From UHGV virus genome UHGV-0261880: 44,278 nucleotides of DNA; one strand, 5' to 3'. Source of the stretch: a virus. The number at the start of each line of letters is the position of its first letter. Positions within the stretch are counted from its first letter, which is position 1. Of this stretch, positions 3,769 through 44,113 are shown in pieces. Both the position numbers and the translations under genes were made by a program. The notes under the pieces are model-generated. The model did not search any database. It worked only from the letters and a program-made list of their open reading frames with translations, and was not told the origin of the DNA.

Positions 3769-6095
3769 TACTTGAACCCCGGCGCGTTTCTTGTGGCCTT
3801 GCGGGCCTTGCTAATCTTGCTGTTGCTGTTCTGCAAAGATGCGGCAACTTGCTCCTCGATGATAATACGCAGACGGCCTTCATCATCTTGCTCAGTGGAT
3901 ACGTTGCCGATTTGAGAACTCGTGTTGTTTACGATAGTAACATTAGATGGCCCGGAAGAAGACCCGTTTTGCCCCATAATTTCTTTCATCTGCTGTGCGG
4001 TGCGAACACGCGACGCACCAGCTGGCATGATAACTTCTGGTTTACCACGTTCTGCGATGGTGGAAGCCTGCCCAGCGGACAACTGACCGCCCTGCTCACG
4101 CGCCGAGCGGATTTTGGCGATATTAGCCAGCCCCGCGGCAACGGCAGTAGCCGCGGCAACCGGCGCCAGGAATGGGCCGACAACAGGGATGGCAGCCGTT
4201 GACTTATATGCCTCGATAGCTGATGTGTACGTGGCGATAGTTGCCTGCGCAATAGCAAACGCTTTATACGCGGTGGACGCCTCGCCAAATGCGGTTTTGG
4301 CATTAGCCGCCATGTCTCCGAAGGCATCTCCGGTGGCTTTGGCGCGCTTCATTGAATACTGCTCATCCAGGGCTAGGAGCGCCATCTGGTACTGTTCGGC
4401 GTTAATTATGCCGTCTGCCATGTATTTTGAGATGATATTCGCTTTTTGGGACTGTTGTATTTCCAGAAGCTCAAGCTCAGTAGCGTTCTGGCCCATAATC
4501 TGCGCCATGAAGTCGTCGCCTTTCTGCTGCTTTTCCTGGGCTTCTTTTCTTTTCTTATCCAGTTCTTCCTGTCGGGCCTGCTCGGCGGTGAGCATAATCT
4601 GCGTTTTGGCGTTTTCGTACTGCTGCTGGCTTATAGTTCCAGCGCGGTTGAACTCTTCAAGTTTCGCCAGTTTCTGCTCTTCTGCCGCTGTAATACGTGA
4701 AATTTCGTCTCCAGTTGTGCGGTCGACAGTAGCGAGGAAATCTTCCGCCGCTTTTTTCTGACGTTGTGCCGCCGTTTCTTCGCGTTTGGCTTGTGCCGCC
4801 AGGCGTTTCTCGTTCGATTTAGCCTCTCGGTCTGCCTTCGCTTTTTCGGTCGCGTCGATGCGAGCGATGTCCTGCTGCGCTTCCGTATCACGGGCGGCGT
4901 TATACGCGGCTATCTGTTCTTTGGTGACAGCTTCACGTTTAGCAAACGCCTGCTTATCCAGTTCAGCTTGCGCCCGGATGCGCTCACGGTCGCTTAAGAT
5001 GGCGATTTGCTGATTCTTGACGATAGCTTCGTTCTGTTCCTGGAACCTCTGCGTGGTTGAGTTAACGTTACGGCCGAGATTCTTTTGGGCCTCCGCCGCC
5101 GCGTTTGCCGACTTCTCCGCGTTCTCCAGTGCCGTGGCGTTCTTGTTGGCGTTGTCCGTCAGGCGGATAAGTTCCGGGTTCAACTGTTTTGTGTTACCGA
5201 GCCAGTCGGTAAACACATCGGCGATGCGACGGGCATTCTCGGCGGTTGGCTCTTTGTTAAACGCGCTCTGCGCCGCTATCATCTCCAGCGCCTGGTCACG
5301 GTTAACCCCGAACTTACTGCTAAGCTCTGCGATATTCTGCGCCAGCATGTTGACGCCTACGATGTTACCCTCGTAAGTGCCGCCGAGTTTTTCTAATGTG
5401 TCGCCTACATCCGCACCCTTAGAGACCAGTGCATCGTACTGGCTGATCGCCGACGCCGTGGAGGCTTTCCACGTTTCCCACGATTCAGCATCTTCACGAA
5501 CAGCTTTAGCGGTTTGCTGCGCGATAAGGTCCGCGTTAGCCTTAGCCAGGGCGAGTTGCGTTTCCGCGGCTTCGCGGCTAATTTGCGTAAGTTGAATAAG
5601 ACCGTCTGTCAGTTCGAGGGAGCCAGATGCCGTTTGCTGGAAAGTATCCTTTAACTGTTTCTGCGCGGCTTCGAGGTCTTTTGAACTACCTTCTGCTTCG
5701 GTTAGCGATTTGTACAGGACCCCGCCAACAGCCGACGCAAGAGCAATTACAGCCCCAAGCACCGCACCACCGGGGCCGAAAGCACCCGCAAGCTGCGAAC
5801 CTTGTTGCCCGATTGCTACGAATGCAGACGTACCGGATTGCAACTGGACTACCATGTCCTGCACCTGGAAGCCAACCTGCCCGGCAGCGTTACGGAACTT
5901 GGCAAAACCGTCGGACGCTGCTTTAGAGGTAGCGGAGTTTACTTTATTAACATCAGGCGTTAGTTTGTTTACTGCGGTATCCGCACGGTCTGCAGACGAT
6001 GCCATAGCGTCAAGCTGTTTGGCAGCTACGTCGGCACCTTCTGTTTTTACTCTGGCAATTAGGGAAGCCGTATCAGCCATCTTCTCTGCCCTCAA
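3768..6095 (-). CDS. Tail tape measure protein
   Basis: 775 aa, long Ala/Gln/Glu/Lys-rich coiled-coil-like middle, hydrophobic Gly/Ala-rich segments, position after G/T chaperones. Confidence 0.85.
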   Translation of the reverse strand: MRAEKMADTASLIARVKTEGADVAAKQLDAMASSADRADTAVNKLTPDVNKVNSATSKAASDGFAKFRNAAGQVGFQVQDMVVQLQSGTSAFVAIGQQGSQLAGAFGPGGAVLGAVIALASAVGGVLYKSLTEAEGSSKDLEAAQKQLKDTFQQTASGSLELTDGLIQLTQISREAAETQLALAKANADLIAQQTAKAVREDAESWETWKASTASAISQYDALVSKGADVGDTLEKLGGTYEGNIVGVNMLAQNIAELSSKFGVNRDQALEMIAAQSAFNKEPTAENARRIADVFTDWLGNTKQLNPELIRLTDNANKNATALENAEKSANAAAEAQKNLGRNVNSTTQRFQEQNEAIVKNQQIAILSDRERIRAQAELDKQAFAKREAVTKEQIAAYNAARDTEAQQDIARIDATEKAKADREAKSNEKRLAAQAKREETAAQRQKKAAEDFLATVDRTTGDEISRITAAEEQKLAKLEEFNRAGTISQQQYENAKTQIMLTAEQARQEELDKKRKEAQEKQQKGDDFMAQIMGQNATELELLEIQQSQKANIISKYMADGIINAEQYQMALLALDEQYSMKRAKATGDAFGDMAANAKTAFGEASTAYKAFAIAQATIATYTSAIEAYKSTAAIPVVGPFLAPVAAATAVAAGLANIAKIRSAREQGGQLSAGQASTIAERGKPEVIMPAGASRVRTAQQMKEIMGQNGSSSGPSNVTIVNNTSSQIGNVSTEQDDEGRLRIIIEEQVAASLQNSNSKISKARKATRNAPGFK

Positions 6096-6345
6096 ATATT
6101 CCGTCTAAGCCCATGATAACCTCGGCTTCGAACAAACTTATGCCGTAACCGGCGACATCACGAAACGCTACCAAATCTTGCCATTTGAGCGCATCGCGCG
6201 GGATTATAACGATAGTATCATCTGTTTCGCGCTGTAGGAATTTAATGGCACGGTATTTCTCGAACACGTCGATAAGAGAAACGGGGCATTCTGGCCCCGT
6301 CGTTTCTTTCATCTGCGGTTCTTTAATCACGCCCATTGCAATCAA
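6073..6345 (-). CDS. Tail assembly chaperone, frameshift-extension segment (T-like)
   Basis: Track ORF starts at a TTG; the same frame is open upstream across the stop of the 6435..6851 gene and is -1 relative to it. Confidence 0.45.
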   Translation of the reverse strand: MIAMGVIKEPQMKETTGPECPVSLIDVFEKYRAIKFLQRETDDTIVIIPRDALKWQDLVAFRDVAGYGISLFEAEVIMGLDGIFEGREDG

Positions 6346-6434
6346 AGCCGCCTGGTGGCCTGCCGCGATGTCGTCGAATTGCTTACGTTTCTGGCGGTCG
6401 ACAAAGCACCATTGCGCAAATTCATACAGCGCTT

Positions 6435-6851
6435 TTACTTTTCCGAGAGTTTCTCGCGGCTATCGGTGTGGTGTTTAACTACGGCTTCTGCCAGTCCGCT
6501 GTACTGGTCTAACAGGTTAGCCAGCGCCTCTTTGCTGAACGGTTCATCAAATGACCAACCGGTGACGATTTCCACAGCAAGCTGCTTGTTCAGGTCCATC
6601 ACCCGCCAGCCCTTCTCATCGTTATAGCGCGCCCAGTTATTCAGCGCCTCGCACTCTTTATCTAATGGCGCAAGTTCTTCCGTAAGGCGTCGAATTGCCG
6701 TTGTGTAGGCGCGGCCCGCACGAACGCCAGCATCACAGTCCGGGCCAATGACCTGCAACCATTCGCCGGAGTCTTTACCACTCGGCAGAAGGATAGGCAT
6801 TTTAGTACCGGCGGCGTGGCGGTCGGCAAAATAGAAATCAGAAAGTTTCAT
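6435..6851 (-). CDS. Tail assembly chaperone (G-like)
   Basis: 138 aa, immediately upstream of tape measure and followed by an overlapping -1 frame ORF, the conserved G/GT arrangement. Confidence 0.55.
   Translation of the reverse strand: MKLSDFYFADRHAAGTKMPILLPSGKDSGEWLQVIGPDCDAGVRAGRAYTTAIRRLTEELAPLDKECEALNNWARYNDEKGWRVMDLNKQLAVEIVTGWSFDEPFSKEALANLLDQYSGLAEAVVKHHTDSREKLSEK
6436..6446 (-). other. Candidate -1 programmed ribosomal frameshift site (CGGAAAAG) at the 3' end of the G-like chaperone gene
   Basis: Zero frame reads ...CTC TCG GAA AAG TAA; -1 frame reads ...GGA AAA GTA AAA... and stays open into the 6073..6345 ORF; heptamer resembles but is not identical to lambda G GGA AAG. Confidence 0.4.
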
Positions 6852-6958
6852 TCTTTAATCCTTTGGTTAAGAGGTTACTGGTTAAGGTTGACGCGCCAGA
6901 CGGGAACCACCCGCTTTTCGTGTGCGACACTAGGCGCAAACTTATTCTAGCACACTAC

Positions 6959-6987
6959 TTGCACACCCCAATATAATAGGGTACTAT
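6959..6987 (+). promoter_or_regulatory. Sigma70-like promoter TTGCAC-N17-TACTAT with embedded palindrome AATAG-ggta-CTATT
   Basis: TTGCACaccccaatataatagggTACTATtca about 30 nt upstream of the 7016 start; near-identical copies at 16871 (+), 29274 (-), 28141 (-). Confidence 0.5.
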
Positions 6988-7015
6988 TCACCCGTAACTT
7001 ATTGAGGAAATAATT

Positions 7016-7342
7016 ATGCGTAAATCAGTATTAGCTCTAGGGTTTATGTCTTTTTCTACCTTTGGGTCCCCGTGCGAACAGGTATTTAGTGAATCTGTTC
7101 TTATTACCTCTGGTGTACTTGAGAAAGCCGACCCTACTATTGTAAAGGCGTTTAAGGACTCTACTGTTCGCGAGTGTGAGGCTGCCGTAGAGGTTGGTAA
7201 ATCGGGCCTGCCTCCGCAAGCCGTAACATACTCTGTAATACGTTCGGTAGAGAAAAACGGAGACGCGTTTTACAGCCTACTGACAGCCACCCGTCTGCAA
7301 ATGGTAATGACTGGATGGGCAATAGGCGCAGAAAGTAAATAG
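7016..7342 (+). CDS. Small secreted/periplasmic protein (signal peptide), opposite-strand insertion in tail module
   Basis: 108 aa; N-terminus MRKSVLALGFMSFSTFGSPCEQ is a signal peptide; own promoter; encoded antisense to the surrounding tail genes. Confidence 0.6.
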   Translation: MRKSVLALGFMSFSTFGSPCEQVFSESVLITSGVLEKADPTIVKAFKDSTVRECEAAVEVGKSGLPPQAVTYSVIRSVEKNGDAFYSLLTATRLQMVMTGWAIGAESK

Positions 7343-7407
7343 TCGCCTTTATTTAAGGGAATTCACTGTGGTTAAATAGGACAAATCTTAAACACGAGGA
7401 AGTAAGC

Positions 7408-8538: not shown

Positions 8539-9023
8539 AAGATATTGTGATTTTCGATTTAGACGGGACATTAGCTGATGGTACACACCGTTTACACCTG
8601 CTGCCGAAAGATAACTACAACGAAACATGGGCGTGGAAGCCTTTTAACATGGCCTGTAAAGATGATGCGCCGATATATGACAACATTCACTTGTGCAACA
8701 CGCTGTGGCATACCGGGATGACCGTAATTATCCTTACCGGGCGCAGTGATGATGCCGAGGGTGAGACTCGTAAATGGTTGCGAGAAAATAACGTTAAGTT
8801 TGACACGCTGATAATGCGCAGCAAACACGACAACAGAAAAGACATCGTAATTAAAGAAGAGGTGTTGCTCGCCATCGGGCTGGAGAGAATCTTGTGTGCG
8901 TTCGATGACTCGCCAGCGGTAATTAAGCATTTCCGCGCCCTCGGTCTGACCACACACGCGGTTACTGAATACGACTGTAACGGGAACTCTACACACTTAA
9001 AATCACACGGGAGCGATAAATAA
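8535..9023 (+). CDS. HAD-superfamily phosphatase, resembling the 3'-phosphatase domain of T4 polynucleotide kinase
   Basis: 162 aa; N-terminal nucleophile motif IFDLDGTLA; ILTGRSD, TRKWL and RKDIVIKEEV segments align by eye with my recollection of T4 Pnk C-terminal domain; start overlaps upstream stop. Confidence 0.7.
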   Translation: MKDIVIFDLDGTLADGTHRLHLLPKDNYNETWAWKPFNMACKDDAPIYDNIHLCNTLWHTGMTVIILTGRSDDAEGETRKWLRENNVKFDTLIMRSKHDNRKDIVIKEEVLLAIGLERILCAFDDSPAVIKHFRALGLTTHAVTEYDCNGNSTHLKSHGSDK

Positions 9024-9577
9024 TGGCTAAGGTAATTATTCTTAATGGCCCTGCGGGTTGCGGGAAAGACACGCTTGCTATGGCGCTGGTAGAAATGGGC
9101 TTTGCGAAAGGAACTACCAGTTTCAAGAATCCAATGTTCAATATTGCTTTGGCAGCGTTAGGCCCGGATGCTTACCACGAATTTCTCGACGGCTACGACG
9201 ACCGGGCGCGGAAAGAAAAGCCAGAGGGTTTTCTCAATGGGTTGTCCCGTCGTCAGTTCATGATTGCCATTTCTGAGCAATTCATTAAACCGGTATTCGG
9301 TGATGATTATTTCGGTAAGTATCTCGCTGAAAACTTGCCTGACGGCGACGAAGTTTTTGTAGTGTCCGACGGTGGATTCGCCAGTGAAGTTGCCCCTATC
9401 GTCGCCGCGGGGCATGACGTGCGAATCGTCCGCCTCCATCGTGACGGCTATACGTTCATCGGCGATAGCCGGGAGTATCTGTACGATGTTAGTGGTGTAA
9501 AAGATTACGACACCTACATCATACAGGGTGACGTTAAATCGAACGTTATAGACATTGCTTTAAAATTAGGTTTGTAA
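9023..9577 (+). CDS. P-loop nucleotide kinase, dNMP-kinase-like (T4 gp1 family)
   Basis: 184 aa; Walker A GPAGCGKDT at residues 9-17; overall pattern resembles T4 gene 1 dNMP kinase from memory; translationally coupled to the HAD gene. Confidence 0.65.
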   Translation: MAKVIILNGPAGCGKDTLAMALVEMGFAKGTTSFKNPMFNIALAALGPDAYHEFLDGYDDRARKEKPEGFLNGLSRRQFMIAISEQFIKPVFGDDYFGKYLAENLPDGDEVFVVSDGGFASEVAPIVAAGHDVRIVRLHRDGYTFIGDSREYLYDVSGVKDYDTYIIQGDVKSNVIDIALKLGL

Positions 9578-9601
9578 GAAAAAGGCCCCGAAAGGGGCCT
9601 T
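9576..9601. terminator. Stem-loop AAGGCCCC-GAAA-GGGGCCTT with flanking A/T run (efficient mainly for minus-strand readthrough)
   Basis: 8-bp GC-rich stem; on the minus strand it is followed by TTTTTC; lies just after the kinase stop. Confidence 0.5.
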
Positions 9602-9614
9602 ATCACAGTAGGAG

Positions 9615-10109
9615 ATGATTATGGATTGGAATGAATTTTTCATATACGATTTAATTTCAGGAAGGATATTTAACAGAGTAACCCGGTCCGGGAGGGCTAA
9701 GGCTGGAGAGGAAGCAGGTACTGTCCAGCGAGACGGATATAGAAGGATATTTTTCCGTGGTAAATGGCATGCGGCGCACCGTATAGCTTGGGACTTAAAC
9801 AATCCTAACGATAAGCTAACCTCGTCAGATCAAATAGACCATCTAGACCATGACCGAATAAACAATAGACCGCTTAACTTAGCTAAAAAGTCCAATGCGG
9901 AAAACCATAAAAATATGTCAAAACAGCGTAATAATAAATCAGGAGTAACCGGAGTTTACTGGAATGCGAAAGAAAGGTTGTGGTACGCACAGATATTCAA
10001 CAATAACGTAAAAACACATATCGGGTGCTTTAAGACGCTACTAGATGCAGTTGCCGCGAGGAGAGTTGCTGAAAGAGATTTGGGGTTCCACGAGAACCAC
10101 GGTAAATAG
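9615..10109 (+). CDS. HNH homing endonuclease with C-terminal AP2-type DNA-binding domain
   Basis: 164 aa; HNH core HAAHRIAW...DHLDHDRINNR; C-terminal SGVTGVYWNAKERLWYAQI...GCFKTLLDAVAARRVAE is AP2-like; AT-rich relative to neighbours. Confidence 0.8.
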   Translation: MIMDWNEFFIYDLISGRIFNRVTRSGRAKAGEEAGTVQRDGYRRIFFRGKWHAAHRIAWDLNNPNDKLTSSDQIDHLDHDRINNRPLNLAKKSNAENHKNMSKQRNNKSGVTGVYWNAKERLWYAQIFNNNVKTHIGCFKTLLDAVAARRVAERDLGFHENHGK

Positions 10110-10110
10110 T

Positions 10111-10137
10111 AAGGCCCCTTTCGGGGCCTTTTCCTTA
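10111..10137 (+). terminator. Rho-independent terminator AAGGCCCC-TTTC-GGGGCCTT + TTTCCTT
   Basis: Exact reverse complement of the 9582 hairpin, placed immediately after the HNH stop; U-tract on plus strand. Confidence 0.55.
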
Positions 10138-11307
10138 CGCGTAGCTAATACGCTGTATTACAATAGAAGATTGATATTGATTGCCTGTGGACTGTCCTTC
10201 TATGCTCTGAGTGATTGACTCAGGTCCGCCAATCTCTGGCGTAACCGCCGTAAGCTCTGCGCGTTTCAAACTGAAAGACATAGCCCCGTTTACCCCCGCC
10301 AGAATAGAGTTAATCTCTACCTGCTGCTCGTTGATAAACTTCTGAATCATCGCCATGTCGTATAGCTTGCCGGAGATGGAGAAGGTGTTTGCCGCGCGGC
10401 TACGTTCCACAAACGCTACGTTAGTGTTGCCGAGTTCGAACTGCGCGGATGCGCTGTTATCGTTGGTGATGGTCAGACTATCACAACGCAACGGCGTAGA
10501 ACCGTCGAACACAGACACATCTACAGACGAGAACGGCTCGTCACCAAACGTGACAGAGGAGAAATCAGAACCAGACGGCGGCTCGGTGAGAATCTCCTGA
10601 CTGCGACCGATGAACGGGAAGCTACCTGTAACCATCGCGTTAACCGCCTGCTCAACGGTAAAACCTGAAACTTCCACGCCTTTAGTCAACGTGTACGCGT
10701 CAGTCCCGCCGCACTGGCCTTTGTACCAGGTAAGAATAGAGAACGTCTTACACTGACTACCAGTCTCCAGCTTATCCCCGGTCTTAGCAGCGGTAGTAAC
10801 AGTCTCTGCGGTCAGAGTGTGCTGGATACCCGTACCAGTGACAACAGTCGCACTTATTTCGGTTACGATAAACGGTTTGGCGTTATCGCCCGTTAAGTCG
10901 GTGAACGCAATCAGGTCGCCTACTTCAACGCCGTCGGTAATAAAGCTACCGGTGGAGCGTGTAAAGGTCTTGCCAGCCGGTGCGACGGTAATCGACAGCC
11001 CTGACAGCGAGACACCTGATTGCCACGTAGAGCCTAAAGCACCTGCCAGCCAGTCATCCTGGCTACGCGAGCTAAGTTCGATAGCGTATTCACCGCTAAC
11101 CTGTTTGTTACCGGTGCGGATGGACGTAGTTTCACGGCTGCCGTCCAGTTCATTGGAGGTCAGCGTGTCTCGGGTAATAGCGGGAACACCGCCAGTGTTA
11201 CGCAACGGCGACCAGACAGGGTTGTCTGGGGTCACGCCCGGGGTAACTTCCGCCACATAGAATTGCGCGGTATTCGCGCCCTTAAAAGGAGTTGTAGCCA
11301 TACTCAC
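10135..11307 (-). CDS. Major tail (tube) protein
   Basis: 390 aa Thr/Ser/Gly-rich beta-type protein, last gene of the head-tail operon before the chaperone pair; call by synteny. Confidence 0.55.
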   Translation of the reverse strand: MSMATTPFKGANTAQFYVAEVTPGVTPDNPVWSPLRNTGGVPAITRDTLTSNELDGSRETTSIRTGNKQVSGEYAIELSSRSQDDWLAGALGSTWQSGVSLSGLSITVAPAGKTFTRSTGSFITDGVEVGDLIAFTDLTGDNAKPFIVTEISATVVTGTGIQHTLTAETVTTAAKTGDKLETGSQCKTFSILTWYKGQCGGTDAYTLTKGVEVSGFTVEQAVNAMVTGSFPFIGRSQEILTEPPSGSDFSSVTFGDEPFSSVDVSVFDGSTPLRCDSLTITNDNSASAQFELGNTNVAFVERSRAANTFSISGKLYDMAMIQKFINEQQVEINSILAGVNGAMSFSLKRAELTAVTPEIGGPESITQSIEGQSTGNQYQSSIVIQRISYA

Positions 11308-17250: not shown

Positions 17251-17275
17251 AAGGCCCCATAACGGGGCCTTTTAT
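17251..17275. terminator. Bidirectional terminator AAGGCCCC-ATAAC-GGGGCCTT
   Basis: 8-bp GC stem followed by TTTATC on plus and preceded by AAATAAAA (T-run on minus); between convergent genes. Confidence 0.55.
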
Positions 17276-18812: not shown

Positions 18813-18848
18813 ACTATAAGAAAGCCCCTTTCGGGGCTATATGTGAAC

Positions 18849-39207: not shown

Positions 39208-39399
39208 ATGAAACACGAATATGACCGCAAACCAGCACGTGACATCGTACCAGGCGACATGATTTTCAACGTTAAAACCCGACAGCCGGTTGCCGTTGAT
39301 ACGGTGTACGTCGAGTCGAACGGTAAACTGGTTATCGAAGACGTAACTGGAAACGTTACGGCGTTCGGGCGTAAAGAGTTAGTTCTGGTGCTGAAATGA
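39208..39399 (+). CDS. Hypothetical protein
   Basis: 63 aa ORF between VRR-NUC and HNH genes. Confidence 0.4.
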   Translation: MKHEYDRKPARDIVPGDMIFNVKTRQPVAVDTVYVESNGKLVIEDVTGNVTAFGRKELVLVLK

Positions 39400-39893
39400 G
39401 TAAATTCAATAGAAGACCCGATATTGAGGAGGCGAAACGTCTTCTTAACTATGACCCCGAAACAGGTATATTTACACGAAAAGTAAGCATAAAAGGGAGA
39501 AATGCTGGGGAGGTAGCCGGAGGGCCAAACGACAAAGGATGCATAGTTATTACAGTCTCCGGTGTAAGAATAAAAGCCCACCATCTGGCATGGGCTTTCG
39601 TCTACGGGGAATATCACAATGGTGAGCTTGACCATAAAGACCGTAACAGGGCCAATAACGCCATAAATAATATAAGGCCCGCAACAAGGAGCCAGCAGAT
39701 TCAGAACCGCGACTGCACCTCGCATAACACCAGCGGCGCGATAGGGGTTTACCAAATACCATCGGGCAGGTGGCGCGCCAGAATAGGCGTCAATAACAGA
39801 TACATCCACCTTGGCTATTTTGACACTATAGAAGAAGCGTCGCGCGTATACCAAAGAGCCGCAGAAATATACTTCGGGGAGTTCAAGGCATGA
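39396..39893 (+). CDS. HNH homing endonuclease with AP2-type domain (second copy of this architecture)
   Basis: 165 aa; KAHHLAWAFVYGEY...DHKDRNRANN; C-terminal IGVYQIPSGRWRARIGVNNRYIHLGYFDTIEEASRVYQRAA is AP2-like. Confidence 0.75.
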   Translation: MSKFNRRPDIEEAKRLLNYDPETGIFTRKVSIKGRNAGEVAGGPNDKGCIVITVSGVRIKAHHLAWAFVYGEYHNGELDHKDRNRANNAINNIRPATRSQQIQNRDCTSHNTSGAIGVYQIPSGRWRARIGVNNRYIHLGYFDTIEEASRVYQRAAEIYFGEFKA

Positions 39894-41826: not shown

Positions 41827-41960
41827 ACATCATAGCCCCAATTCCAGCATTGCAAAAACGTATCAAGGAACTTGAGGAAGAGGTTCTACGACTACGGCAA
41901 CAGAGAGATGCCGCTAATGCGCAACTGGCGTTTGTGCTGGAGAAGCTATCAGAAGAGTAG
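41823..41960 (+). CDS. Small coiled-coil peptide (45 aa), below cutoff
   Basis: ATGA overlap with Toprim gene; MNIIAPIPALQKRIKELEEEVLRLRQQRDAANAQLAFVLEKLSEE; followed by terminator. Confidence 0.35.
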   Translation: MNIIAPIPALQKRIKELEEEVLRLRQQRDAANAQLAFVLEKLSEE

Positions 41961-41964
41961 CGAA

Positions 41965-41984
41965 AAGGCCCCTAAAGGGGCCTT
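41965..41984. terminator. Terminator hairpin AAGGCCCC-TAAA-GGGGCCTT + AGTTTTATTT between convergent genes
   Basis: 8-bp GC stem; U-tract on plus strand; same stem sequence as hairpins at 9582, 10111 and 17251. Confidence 0.55.
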
Positions 41985-41992
41985 AGTTTTAT

Positions 41993-44113
41993 TTACCCAA
42001 TAACAGTCCCATCAGTAAGGCTTGTTGGCGGGGAACCAAATTTACGCACTAACTGATTTGATGAGTTTTTAAACAAATAGAATTTGCTACCAAATTCCAT
42101 GCATGGAATACCTGTTCCTGTGGTTGTAGCCAATCCGAGATTTGTTGCAATGAATGCCTTTCCATCGAAATTAATAATATTATTTACGTTATTTACCCCG
42201 TGGTAGTTTGAAATCGAACTAACCCAGTCTACAGCTGTAGTTTTTGGATTAGTAATGTTCAATGCATTTGCAGCTGCCGTCAGCGTGTCTATGCGCAGAT
42301 TGTCGATAGTTACTTTTCCGTAATTATCGATTATCCATGAAGTAGCTGGATTGCGTATATCGATGTTACGTCCTACAAACTCGCTAATGTTCTTTATTCT
42401 CGGAGCGGTTTTAATTCCGGTCAAGGTGCAAGTATAGTTCTCGACTTTGACGACCCCAAAGGTATCTCCTCCGTTAGTCGTGTTTATACTGAGAGCATTC
42501 TGCACGTTTTCACTTGTTACATTTAAAATTTTAGCATCAATTGCGCCAGAGTTCTCAATATTAACGTCAGTGTTAGCACCGTTTATGTACACACCATCGA
42601 GTGTAGCTTTACGAGTAAGTGGAGAGTTGCTCGGATACATGCTAATGATAAACCCCATCGTATTATGACGAACTGATGGGTCATCTTCATCCTCTACCGT
42701 ATTCTGGTGATAGATTCTTGTACCTTGCCCTATGTACACGTCATAGCTTCCAGATAGACGCATACCCCACTTGCCTTTCTTACTCCCGATATTGTTGCAA
42801 TATGCACCGAGAACAACCCCAGACGATATCTGGAATACAGGGCTGCCGTCAGAATTGTCTTCAGAGGTCATCAATATTGGCTCTCTCCAGCGGGATACCT
42901 GATATGACCCGCCAATTACCTTGAAGTTAGCGGTACTGTGGAAGGCCATGCCGTTACGGTCAGTGTCATAAGTGCGACAACGCGTCACCTGCACATCAGT
43001 ACAGAACTTAAACATTATCCCAGGTTGACCGCCACGAGAGCCATAAGCATTAACAACCGAGCAGTCAGTTAATTTAATGCGAGTGGCCTGGTGGAACCAG
43101 AAACCATTAAATGTTGACGTATCTACTGTTGTGTCCCACGTCACATTAGACTTATTACCATCAATAACAAGTCCATTTACGGTGATGTCATAATGCTCAG
43201 GGATACCTGCGTCATAAGTATACGCCTTACGGTTGGTTATCCCGGTGGAAATGCTTGGGTAGTGACCGGGTTTTAATTTCAGCGTACATCCGTAAGCATT
43301 AATTGTTGTACCGGGCTTAACAATTAAAGGTGTCCCGTCCCAATAAATTGTTCGTGCGGGGAAAGCAATCGTCGAGGCTCCTGAATTTAGCGCGGCCTTA
43401 ATGGCTGCCGTATGATCCCCAGCAGTTTCCATTGCTGGAGTAATGAAGCTCTCTACGCTGACGTGTGCACCATACCCACGATGCCCATTGCCCTGTGAAT
43501 ACCAGTTACTATCTGGCGCGCTACCCGGTGCGATGCTAACTGGGAATGTGGACGCCCCCTTATATGCATACCAATTCCCATCAGCAGCCTGGGCCAGGTC
43601 GTTCGGGCCTGACACTGAACCACCGGCAGCAAAAGTAACACGTCTGGTAGTAGCAGTTTTGGCGTAGTCACTGTAGACGGTACCGCCAAAACTGCTACCG
43701 ACTATCTTATCGCCGTTGCTTTCTAAATCGTTTCTCAAATCAGGGTCCGTCTGAGGTTTCCAATCCGCATTACCCACAGGGTTAAAACCTGCTGGAACCG
43801 TAACAGGCAGAGCACCGGCGTACGAGTACCACGTCTTGCTTACAGGGTCATACACCACTTTGTCACGGTCATTAACTGTTAACGTACCGCCGGTAGAAAA
43901 GTCCCACGACACAGGAGAAAATCCAGCGTCACGCAACACGGCGGGGAGCGTTTTTTGGGTCTGGCCTGTAACAGGGTTGGTCGCGTAATCGATATTGGTA
44001 CCCCCAGCAACCCCGCCGGATTTGCCGGTGATAACCTCGGCCTCGAAAATCTGGTGCTTCTTGGCGGTTTGTAAATCCGCCAGGCTTAAAACGTCACCAC
44101 ATCCGCTTGACAT
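41993..44113 (-). CDS. Tailspike / tail fibre with right-handed beta-helix (pectate-lyase-like) central region
   Basis: 706 aa; central segment rich in short repeated Asn/Gly/Thr/Val turns (VIDGNKSNVTWDTTVDTS...VQVTRCRTYDTDRNGMAFHS...) typical of beta-helix depolymerases; AAAGAGGA RBS. Confidence 0.7.
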   Translation of the reverse strand: MSSGCGDVLSLADLQTAKKHQIFEAEVITGKSGGVAGGTNIDYATNPVTGQTQKTLPAVLRDAGFSPVSWDFSTGGTLTVNDRDKVVYDPVSKTWYSYAGALPVTVPAGFNPVGNADWKPQTDPDLRNDLESNGDKIVGSSFGGTVYSDYAKTATTRRVTFAAGGSVSGPNDLAQAADGNWYAYKGASTFPVSIAPGSAPDSNWYSQGNGHRGYGAHVSVESFITPAMETAGDHTAAIKAALNSGASTIAFPARTIYWDGTPLIVKPGTTINAYGCTLKLKPGHYPSISTGITNRKAYTYDAGIPEHYDITVNGLVIDGNKSNVTWDTTVDTSTFNGFWFHQATRIKLTDCSVVNAYGSRGGQPGIMFKFCTDVQVTRCRTYDTDRNGMAFHSTANFKVIGGSYQVSRWREPILMTSEDNSDGSPVFQISSGVVLGAYCNNIGSKKGKWGMRLSGSYDVYIGQGTRIYHQNTVEDEDDPSVRHNTMGFIISMYPSNSPLTRKATLDGVYINGANTDVNIENSGAIDAKILNVTSENVQNALSINTTNGGDTFGVVKVENYTCTLTGIKTAPRIKNISEFVGRNIDIRNPATSWIIDNYGKVTIDNLRIDTLTAAANALNITNPKTTAVDWVSSISNYHGVNNVNNIINFDGKAFIATNLGLATTTGTGIPCMEFGSKFYLFKNSSNQLVRKFGSPPTSLTDGTVIG

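Follow-up and report, generated by a model that had tools for sequence, protein, structure and literature searches.

A probable free-standing HNH-AP2 homing endonuclease cassette carrying its own copy of a phage terminator hairpin

Results

The window analysed here is a stretch of 44,278 nucleotides (UHGV virus genome UHGV-0261880) from a Kagunavirus-like phage whose nearest relatives are ~90% identical, and its sequence places it among the Kagunavirus-type E. coli phages. The locus described below (Table 1) lies at what is, in Kagunavirus genomes, the junction between a variable accessory module on the plus strand and the convergent tail-tube gene. In the window, a deoxynucleoside monophosphate (dNMP) kinase gene closes the resident plus-strand module; it is 88-97% identical to its counterparts in EM1 and M01. 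Between this gene and the tail-tube gene lie a hairpin, a small open reading frame and a second copy of the hairpin. The reading frame 9615-10109, which the earlier note on this DNA had described as an AT-rich gene, is indeed present on the plus strand and has a GC content of 42.1%, compared with 50.8% for the window and 53.1% for the tail-tube gene.

Table 1. Features at the HNH locus, with positions in the window; terminators and protein functions are predictions.
Feature	Position	Strand	Description
dNMP kinase gene, left neighbour	9023..9577	+	phrog_139 at 6.2e-45
Resident terminator hairpin	9582..9601	.	AAGGCCCCGAAAGGGGCCTT; 8-bp stem, plus-strand loop GAAA
Cassette leader	9602..9620	+	ATCACAGTAGGAGATGATT; ribosome-binding site AGGAG at 9610-9614
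HNH-AP2 homing endonuclease gene	9621..10109	+	162 aa; 164 aa from start at 9615
Second terminator hairpin copy	10111..10130	.	AAGGCCCCTTTCGGGGCCTT; exact reverse complement of AAGGCCCCGAAAGGGGCCTT; plus-strand loop TTTC
Spacer TTCC	10131..10134	.	linked to cassette; AGTT at most empty sites
Tail tube protein gene, right neighbour	10135..11307	-	PF18906 Phage_tube_2 at 2.3e-35; convergent with HNH gene
Haplotype A block, last ~90 nt of tail-tube gene	10135..10224	-	linked to cassette

Upstream, the HNH frame extends no further than an in-frame TAG at 9609-9611. The ATG at 9621, which follows the AGGAG by 6 nt, is a likelier start than 9615, and the same start is used in the annotation of Ro145c2YLVW; annotation of the gene should begin at 9621. 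A scan of the region upstream of the gene yielded no promoter-like site. The encoded protein matches Pfam HNH_3 (PF13392) with 27.0 bits, above the gathering score of 24.8, over residues 53-98 of the 164-aa form, and matches phrog_99 (‘HNH endonuclease’) at 5.6e-50; an NCBIfam search with it gave no match. The motif residues H53, D73, H74, N82, N86, N95 and N98, invariant in 28 homologues, are all present in the window protein. Five records in the phage collection have 95% identity or more to it, and the other 2497 lie below 60%.

The AF2 model of the protein (pLDDT 84.9) has as its top PDB match the homing endonuclease I-HmuI of Bacillus phage SPO1 (1u3e), a match of moderate strength (Foldseek E 1.1e-3, probability 1.00, TM 0.40, 101 aligned columns). 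The two proteins share an HNH active site that includes an Asp-His pair; I-HmuI differs in being intron-encoded and in its C-terminal DNA-binding region, and the two sequences are 22% identical. As to the AP2 half of the HNH-AP2 label given to the gene in the earlier note, the full protein has no match to Pfam AP2 (PF00847) at E<=10, the isolated C-terminal fragment matches at E 0.021 with 15.5 bits, below the gathering score of 33.3, and the best PDB sequence match is an AP2 protein at a weak E of 0.035; two homologues (P0010 and P0020) carry PF00847 in precomputed annotation. In the model, the C-terminus (residues 112-154) forms a three-stranded sheet (strands 112-115, 120-127 and 130-137) and a helix (140-154), and this region superposes on the AP2 domains of Arabidopsis TEM1 and ERF1 at 1.2-1.6 Å (7et5: rmsd 1.2 Å, 48 columns, probability 1.00; 1gcc: 1.6 Å, 46 columns, probability 0.99), with modest E-values in the fold search (1e-3 for I-HmuI, 0.03-0.2 for the AP2 domains). 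The predicted structure thus supports a C-terminal AP2-type domain that is weak by sequence, and the label can be kept on that footing: the gene is intact and AT-rich, with a predicted fold consisting of an I-HmuI-like nuclease and a C-terminal AP2 domain.

The two 20-bp hairpins that flank the gene are exact reverse complements of each other, as had been reported, and none of 100 dinucleotide-preserving shuffles gave any match. The stem is self-complementary, so that ‘inverted’ and ‘direct’ copies differ by the 4-nt loop alone (GAAA vs TTTC); compared as direct repeats, the two hairpins match at 16 of 20 positions. Both have a GC-rich stem and a short loop, with stems folding at -15.4 to -16.8 kcal/mol, and both are to be read as predicted terminators. 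The left hairpin (-16.8 kcal/mol as plus-strand RNA) retains on its left the A-tract that forms the U-tract of minus-strand transcripts; a terminator scan called it on the minus strand only, with the tail TTTCTTAC. The right hairpin (-15.4 kcal/mol on the plus and -16.8 on the minus strand) retains the plus-strand U-tract, GGGGCC being followed by TTTTCCTT (tail as counted from GGGGCC), and received no terminator call on either strand by the scan's own rule. The same stem recurs at 17251 with the 5-nt loop ATAAC and at 41965 with the loop TAAA, recurrences already noticed in the earlier reading of the sequence; each lies between convergent open reading frames.

The state of the site without the gene was read from ~66 HNH-less relatives, comprising 40 listed INPHARED records and 26 IMG/VR contigs. 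The empty site has the layout TAAGAAAAAGGCCCC-loop-GGGGCCTTAGTTTTA, with a single hairpin in the 28 nt that separate the convergent stop codons. Direct reading of L AB-2017, EM1 and K1G showed this hairpin, which was also found in all 26 IMG/VR contigs; the 40 INPHARED records match the window in two pieces whose span is ~529 bp shorter. In EM1 and L AB-2017, the sole hairpin is the window's left hairpin in the same left context. The earlier note had predicted a single hairpin in relatives lacking the gene, and had named two hairpins without the gene as the contrary case; the latter arrangement occurs in none of the ~66 relatives. As proposed there, the HNH gene has been inserted where a terminator already separated the plus-strand genes from the convergent tail-tube gene. 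Among the 26 IMG/VR empty sites the loop is GAAA in 17 and TTTC in five, and the spacer is AGTT in 25. In this phage group the terminator adjoins at least four unrelated upstream genes.

The inserted cassette comprises 533 bp (9602-10134) and is found at the same site in seven other genomes: Ro145c2YLVW/Ro145clw, KMB36, 536P11 and four metagenomic contigs. It is rare: among 119 INPHARED records matching the region 5 have it, as do 2 of 28 IMG/VR contigs. Two of the carriers came from exact-protein look-ups, neither with the dNMP kinase context of the window, and a metagenome scan for the left junction yielded no contig beyond the one known from IMG/VR. Presence or absence of the gene is thus polymorphic at a single, constant intergenic site, always between the plus-strand module and the tail-tube stop codon, with eight carriers against ~66 empty sites.

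Among the eight carriers, the cassette is 94.8-99.6% identical in pairwise comparison (mean 97.1), and the first 90 nt to its right are 93-99% identical, whereas the remainder of the tail-tube gene reaches 81.6-96.8% (mean 86.9) and the left flank 69-92%, that of the window being unrelated to the others. In all seven other carriers a ~231-bp open reading frame, unrelated to the dNMP kinase gene, takes the place of the left neighbour. The left junction CCTT/ATC (slash at the boundary) is common to all carriers, and all eight have the right loop TTTC and a right spacer of TTCC or TTAC. The left loop is GAAA in six and TTTC in two, in agreement with the allele frequencies at empty sites; Ro145c2YLVW and KMB36 accordingly have two identical, direct TTTC hairpins. 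The orientation of the gene is constant, with no flipped cassette among the eight. In one carrier, L015, a 2-bp insertion breaks the HNH frame.

The first ~90 nt to the right, which we call the haplotype A block, differ between the window and the other carriers at 0-5 of 90 positions, and between the window and most HNH-less genomes at 16-20 of 90; beyond the block, carriers and HNH-less genomes are equally distant from the window. Only two amino-acid changes fall within it. The element is thus more conserved than its flanks and has a linked tract on the right, a linkage that is not exclusive, as haplotype A also occurs without the HNH gene in XY2, L026 and L030. XY2 is HNH-less and yet has the loop TTTC, the spacer TTCC, haplotype A and the ~231-bp open reading frame upstream. 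A pair of near-identical genomes differing by the cassette alone was not found among the relatives; XY2 and the carriers are 75-98% identical in the flanks. More distant homologues of the gene (65-75% identical) lie at the same position with a hairpin within 0-3 nt downstream and no left hairpin, which indicates that the HNH gene and its downstream hairpin form a conserved unit.

Discussion

Based on these patterns, we think it quite probable that the locus holds a free-standing HNH-AP2 homing endonuclease cassette which carries its own terminator copy and sits just 3' of the resident bidirectional terminator. The cassette would consist of a leader with a ribosome-binding site, the fusion of an HNH_3 nuclease with an AP2 domain, a copy of the terminator hairpin common to the family, and the spacer TTCC. 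The left hairpin would belong to the recipient or its upstream module, while the right hairpin and ~90 nt of the 3' end of the tail-tube gene would move together with the nuclease gene. The earlier proposal had been that the insertion split or duplicated the terminator; of these, splitting does not hold, the left hairpin being the intact resident, and the second copy is real and travels with the cassette.

We infer homing from the distribution of the cassette among genomes. The enzyme would nick or cut the HNH-less allele near the hairpin or the end of the tail-tube gene, a candidate target being haplotype B with the spacer AGTT, and repair from a co-infecting genome that has the gene would then copy the cassette in. 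I-HmuI, the closest structural match, nicks one strand. The tail-tube gene would provide the right homology arm, and where the upstream genes differ, the terminator of ~25 nt would be the only homology available on the left, a length at which recombinational repair has little to work with. The haplotype A block is likely a co-conversion tract and may possibly represent a cleavage-resistant allele; the linkage on this side could also reflect shared ancestry rather than co-conversion, since haplotype A is present in the three HNH-less genomes named above.

As for expression, the HNH gene would have no promoter of its own and would be transcribed by read-through of the left hairpin, which lacks a U-tract on the plus strand. 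The insertion would divide the functions of the bidirectional terminator, leaving the minus-strand U-tract with the left copy and the plus-strand U-tract with the right copy. With the two U-tracts on separate copies, the transcripts converging from either side may both run through the HNH gene. The opposite loops in the window are a chance combination of alleles, a resident GAAA and a cassette TTTC, and not a functional inverted repeat.

We speculate further, as a tentative and rather doubtful extension, that the duplicated terminator makes the gene portable, with the hairpin serving as a left arm that lets it jump across non-homologous modules; the AP2 domain may bind the GC-rich stem, and the loop may invert recurrently. 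The same conserved terminator of ~20-28 nt bounds the cassette on both sides and is found next to four or more unrelated upstream genes in the group, so that any site with a single hairpin could, once broken, be repaired with a carrier as template and the hairpin as arm; one such jump would be seen in the window, where a dNMP kinase gene takes the place of the ~231-bp open reading frame on the left. Three loop sequences do occur in both orientations (GAAA/TTTC, GGAA/TTCC and AAAC/GTTT). Minute inversions of hairpin loops have been described for non-coding DNA of chloroplasts, and the present terminator resembles them in its conserved stem and in a loop that occurs in both orientations among relatives; it differs in being a phage terminator, in which selection for a GNRA tetraloop, recombination at the stem and physical inversion are inseparable. 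No account of such loop inversion in phage terminators came up in a literature search.

A second copy of the hairpin could also have arisen in situ, if the leader and HNH gene had inserted into a single hairpin like that of XY2 with a 20-bp target duplication, the left loop having later flipped or been converted to GAAA. XY2 has the exact right-hand configuration together with the upstream ~231-bp open reading frame, Ro145c2YLVW and KMB36 have the two identical TTTC copies that such a duplication would leave, and loop orientation flips between related genomes such as L020 (GAAA) and L035 (TTTC), whose flanks are identical at 381 of 400 positions. We nonetheless regard this origin as unlikely: GAAA is the left loop in six of eight carriers, matching its frequency at empty sites, the older homologues already have the hairpin directly after the HNH gene, and a deletion by recombination between two hairpin copies could account for XY2 equally well. 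To our knowledge, target-site duplications do not occur with homing endonucleases.

Still less probable is a domesticated accessory gene, vertically inherited and no longer mobile, which might exclude co-infecting relatives or process DNA and whose second hairpin would be its own terminator. The intact reading frame and conserved catalytic motif would fit this, as would the occurrence of 65-75% identical homologues at this site in phages further removed, a hint of long residence, and marker exclusion is a known function of T4 endonucleases (PMC2988022). Against it stand the rarity of the cassette, its conservation far above that of the adjoining essential gene, the unrelated upstream gene in the window, and the broken frame in L015, as expected of a decaying selfish gene. 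Finally, we reject a transposon-like or invertible cassette with the hairpins as terminal inverted repeats, a reading for which the exact reverse complementarity of the two 20-mers speaks, as next to untenable: every empty site already has the left ‘repeat’, the copies are direct in two carriers, gene orientation and site are constant in 8/8 carriers, the sole open reading frame is the HNH nuclease, with no transposase, invertase or target duplication, and the inverted identity beyond the self-complementary stem amounts to 4 nt.

As a homing endonuclease cassette, the locus is a tidy though unremarkable representative of a familiar class of mobile phage genes. The free-standing HNH genes of T4 are intergenic, are expressed from upstream promoters with terminator read-through, and have co-converted flanks (PMC2988022). 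The mobA-E genes of T-even phages, especially mobE, and the seg genes are likewise small nuclease genes between conserved genes that occur sporadically among relatives; as is likely for the window's HNH gene, they have no promoter of their own and depend on upstream promoters acting through intrinsic terminators, and their co-converted flanks have a parallel in the linked right flank of the window's gene (PMC2988022, PMC2790892). The window differs from these systems in being a Kagunavirus-like siphovirus, in the predicted AP2-type DNA-binding module of its enzyme, and in the position of the insertion at a bidirectional terminator between convergent genes, which leaves two copies. The empty sites themselves resemble bidirectional intrinsic terminators in having a GC-rich 8-bp stem and a 4-nt loop, with an A-tract and a T-tract on opposite sides, and they lie between two stop codons separated by 28 nt; in the window, the tracts sit on two hairpin copies, both predicted terminators, 529 bp apart.

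Magnani et al. reportedly described HNH-AP2 homing endonucleases in 2004. The combination of HNH and AP2 is a recognised homing endonuclease architecture, and genes of this type lie at the borders of genetic exchange between phages (PMC10448857). The ‘IPA-HNH’ genes of Barth et al. 2023 share with the window protein an N-terminal HNH and a C-terminal AP2 domain; those of ICP1 are too divergent for the HNH_3 profile, whereas the window protein matches canonical Pfam HNH_3, and its AP2 domain is seen mainly through structure prediction (PMC10448857). Papers on Kagunavirus mention HNH genes only in passing.

The locus offers a natural example of how a probable homing endonuclease gene can settle at a convergent terminator with neither neighbour deprived of a predicted stop signal, and of a short conserved terminator that can serve as a seam for the exchange of phage modules. 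Kagunavirus genomes are in use for phage therapy, and the double hairpin marks the cassette in them.

The locus and its hairpins

The window comes from a Kagunavirus-like (K1G-like) E. coli siphophage whose nearest relatives are ~90% identical. It holds an intact HNH ORF between two copies of a 20-mer hairpin, and both their positions and their exact reverse-complement relation are as the earlier note had described; no such match arose in 100 dinucleotide-preserving shuffles. The gene is AT-rich, as also remarked there, with 42.1% GC against 50.8% for the window. The motif AGGAG (9610-9614) abuts its first ATG and lies 6 nt ahead of a second one at 9621; because of this spacing, and because the annotation of phage Ro145c2YLVW starts the gene at the second ATG, 9621 is the likelier start codon.

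Features of the HNH locus and related elements in the window
Feature	Position	Strand	Remark
dNMP kinase	9023-9577	+	left neighbour; phrog_139
Left hairpin	9582-9601		20-mer, AAGGCCCCGAAAGGGGCCTT
HNH ORF	9615-10109	+	intact; between the two hairpins
Right hairpin	10111-10130		20-mer, exact reverse complement of AAGGCCCCGAAAGGGGCCTT
Tail tube protein	10135-11307	-	right neighbour; PF18906
Further stem copies	17251; 41965		each between convergent ORFs
Related hairpin	18821-18840		AAAGCCCCTTTCGGGGCTAT; GAAA loop on - strand; stem differs at 3 positions
Second HNH-AP2-like gene	39396-39893	+	165 aa

Because the hairpin stem is its own reverse complement, any pair of copies can be read equally as direct or as inverted repeats; the two arrangements differ only in the 4-nt loop, GAAA or TTTC. 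The two further copies of the stem that had been pointed out were recovered. The one at 41965 matches, over 41958-41995, the terminator of HNH-less relatives in flanks and stem (GAAAAGGCCCC-TAAA-GGGGCCTTAGTTTTAT), and the terminators at this genome's convergent junctions look as if they were paralogues of a single unit. The hairpin at 18821-18840 is probably another terminator of the same style.

HNH-less relatives carry a single hairpin

With a 2.7-kb query, most relatives match in two pieces, their record span being ~529 bp shorter. In L AB-2017, EM1 and K1G, read directly, 28 nt separate the stop codons, and within them lies one hairpin, TAAGAAAAAGGCCCC-loop-GGGGCCTTAGTTTTA, built like a bidirectional intrinsic terminator with its A-tract to one side and its T-tract to the other. 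A pattern scan of IMG/VR found 28 contigs with the site, and all 26 without the HNH gene have exactly one hairpin. The comparison with HNH-less genomes proposed in the earlier note thus yields a single hairpin at the site, and among the relatives examined (direct reads plus the 28 contigs) none has two hairpins without the gene, the case that the note had named as refuting its reading.

The 533-bp cassette (leader, HNH gene, right hairpin and spacer; 9602-10134) occupies the same site in phages Ro145c2YLVW, Ro145clw, KMB36 and 536P11, in IMG/VR contigs L015 and L033, and in two more contigs, L051 and L052. Upstream, all these other carriers have a ~231-bp ORF unrelated to the dNMP kinase of the window; the dNMP kinase end and the HNH gene are joined in no record of the phage collection, which leaves the window as the one genome with this left context among the data searched. 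Pairwise identity among carriers is 94.8-99.6% (mean 97.1) in the cassette, 93-99% in the first 90 nt of the right flank, 81.6-96.8% (mean 86.9) in the remainder of the tail-tube gene and 69-92% in the left 250 nt, where the window is unrelated. Across the 90-nt stretch of right flank, 16-20 positions separate the window from most HNH-less genomes, with only two amino-acid changes; deeper in the gene, carriers and non-carriers are equally distant. An element that is spreading recently and co-converts a short tract would be expected to show such a profile, with the caveat that the same right-flank haplotype also occurs without the HNH gene in XY2, L026 and L030.

Origin of the second hairpin

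The right loop is TTTC in 8/8 carriers, followed by the spacer TTCC (TTAC in Ro145c2YLVW); the spacer is AGTT at 25/26 IMG/VR empty sites. The left loop is GAAA in six carriers (the window, 536P11, L015, L033, L051 and L052) and TTTC in two, Ro145c2YLVW and KMB36, where the hairpins are perfect direct repeats. The 26 empty-site loops comprise 17 GAAA, five TTTC and one each of GGAA, TTCC, GTTT and TTAC; in addition, K1G has AAAC and M01 GTCA. By these allele counts, the left loop mirrors the resident population and the right loop is clonal with the cassette; the inverted arrangement of the window is a resident GAAA allele combined with a cassette-borne TTTC allele.

Homologues 65-75% identical, in more distant contigs, lie at the same position with a hairpin 0-3 nt downstream; they have no left hairpin, and their start codon overlaps the stop of the gene before it. 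On this comparison, the HNH gene and its downstream hairpin are the older unit, and the double hairpin probably arose when this unit joined the 3' side of another module's terminator. Of the earlier proposal that an insertion split or duplicated a terminator, the two copies stand, the duplication consisting of a resident left copy and a cassette-borne right one. A less likely origin is a 20-bp duplication in place within an XY2-like genome whose loop changed afterwards; it agrees less well with the loop allele frequencies. The idea that inverted repeats bound a recombining cassette, and with it any transposon or invertible-cassette reading, is rejected, as the left hairpin is resident at empty sites and two carriers have direct copies.

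The terminator loop (window 9590-9593) is hypervariable and the stem invariant in relatives L003, L014 and L016-L042. Three reverse-complement loop pairs occur (GAAA/TTTC, GGAA/TTCC, AAAC/GTTT), which suggests recurrent inversion, within-stem conversion, or selection for a GNRA tetraloop in either transcript. Since the closest such pair, L020 and L035, shares 381/400 flanking positions, a single-step inversion or conversion is favoured there over four independent substitutions. RNA folding energies are -16.8 kcal/mol for the GAAA-loop hairpin and -15.4 for the UUUC version. In L033/L050 and L051 the left hairpin, but not the right, has a C-to-T change in its 3' arm (GGGGTCTT), at which G-U pairing in RNA stays possible.

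Probable expression and homing

No promoter-like site was found in the 19-nt leader, and a + strand transcript would continue from the left hairpin into AUCACAG, not a U-tract; the HNH gene is thus probably expressed by read-through from upstream genes, a mode of expression shared by several free-standing endonuclease genes of T4 (PMC2988022). The - strand U-tract has stayed with the left hairpin, where a terminator scan calls a - strand terminator, and the + strand tract with the right one (GGGGCC-UUUUCCUU). It follows that the former bidirectional terminator may be partitioned between the two copies, with both convergent transcripts possibly running across the HNH gene.

The gene is a free-standing HNH-AP2 homing endonuclease gene of a known general kind, like the T4 mob genes, I-HmuI-like enzymes and the ICP1 'IPA-HNH' genes. 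If it acts like the free-standing endonucleases that have been characterised, its product would cut or nick an HNH-less allele close to the junction, into which the cassette would then be copied during repair from a carrier; where upstream genes differ, as in the window, the ~25-nt terminator would be the only left homology. The AP2 domain reportedly prefers GC-rich DNA (PMC10448857), which makes the hairpin stem a candidate AP2 binding site.

The HNH gene lies at a module-exchange boundary, a position that Barth et al. described in other phages (PMC10448857), and the hairpin marks a hotspot of such exchange. At least four unrelated genes adjoin the same terminator on its left, including the dNMP kinase, the ~231-bp ORF and a gene ending ...FYEMPFKSE. 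A second mosaic block lies nearby: ~4600-7400 is 89-98% identical to XY2 and M01 and barely aligns with Ro145c2YLVW, KMB36, 536P11 or EM1. Particular to this locus are the terminator duplication, in which a resident copy can be cleanly told from one that moves with the gene, and the loop polymorphism, with three loop sequences in both orientations.

The HNH-AP2 protein

The protein matches Pfam HNH_3 above the gathering threshold and phrog_99 (5.6e-50), and its HNH motif residues are invariant among 28 homologues. Pfam AP2 gave no match to the full-length protein and 15.5 bits for a C-terminal fragment, below the threshold of 33.3; the top PDB sequence match is a Toxoplasma AP2 protein (E 0.035). 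An AlphaFold2 model built from the 28-sequence alignment (mean pLDDT 84.9) has the HNH homing endonuclease I-HmuI as its top PDB match (E 1.1e-3, probability 1.00), and its residues 112-154, three strands and a helix, superpose on the AP2 domains of Arabidopsis TEM1 and ERF1 at 1.2-1.6 A. The HNH_3 score, the motif and the model matches together support the HNH-AP2 label given earlier, its AP2 part through predicted structure; this domain combination is an established architecture of homing endonucleases (Magnani et al. 2004, as cited in PMC10448857). The gene is annotated 'HNH homing endonuclease' in KMB36. In tblastn against phage records, five matches are at least 95% identical and the remaining 2497 below 60%.

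In carriers with the leader ATCGCAACAGGAG (KMB36 (L007/L010, 997-1536), 536P11, L015, L033, L051 and L052), no stop codon interrupts the frame upstream of the HNH gene, across the left hairpin and as far as an ATG that overlaps the stop of the preceding gene; in the window and Ro145c2YLVW an in-frame TAG closes it. The longer frame gives the 179-aa form (P0001, which clusters 98 sequences), either a real protein or a gene-caller artefact. L015, from the same 44407-bp contig as L049, has a 2-bp insertion (ACACACAC replacing ACACAC) ~100 nt upstream of the HNH stop, which frameshifts the AP2-like C-terminus and reflects either a decaying endonuclease copy or a sequencing error.

The second HNH-AP2-like gene is 32% identical to the first (tblastn E 7e-7), has no flanking hairpins, and its stop overlaps the start of a helicase-like gene at 39890; endonucleases of this family are therefore encoded at least twice in the genome, each time in a different setting.
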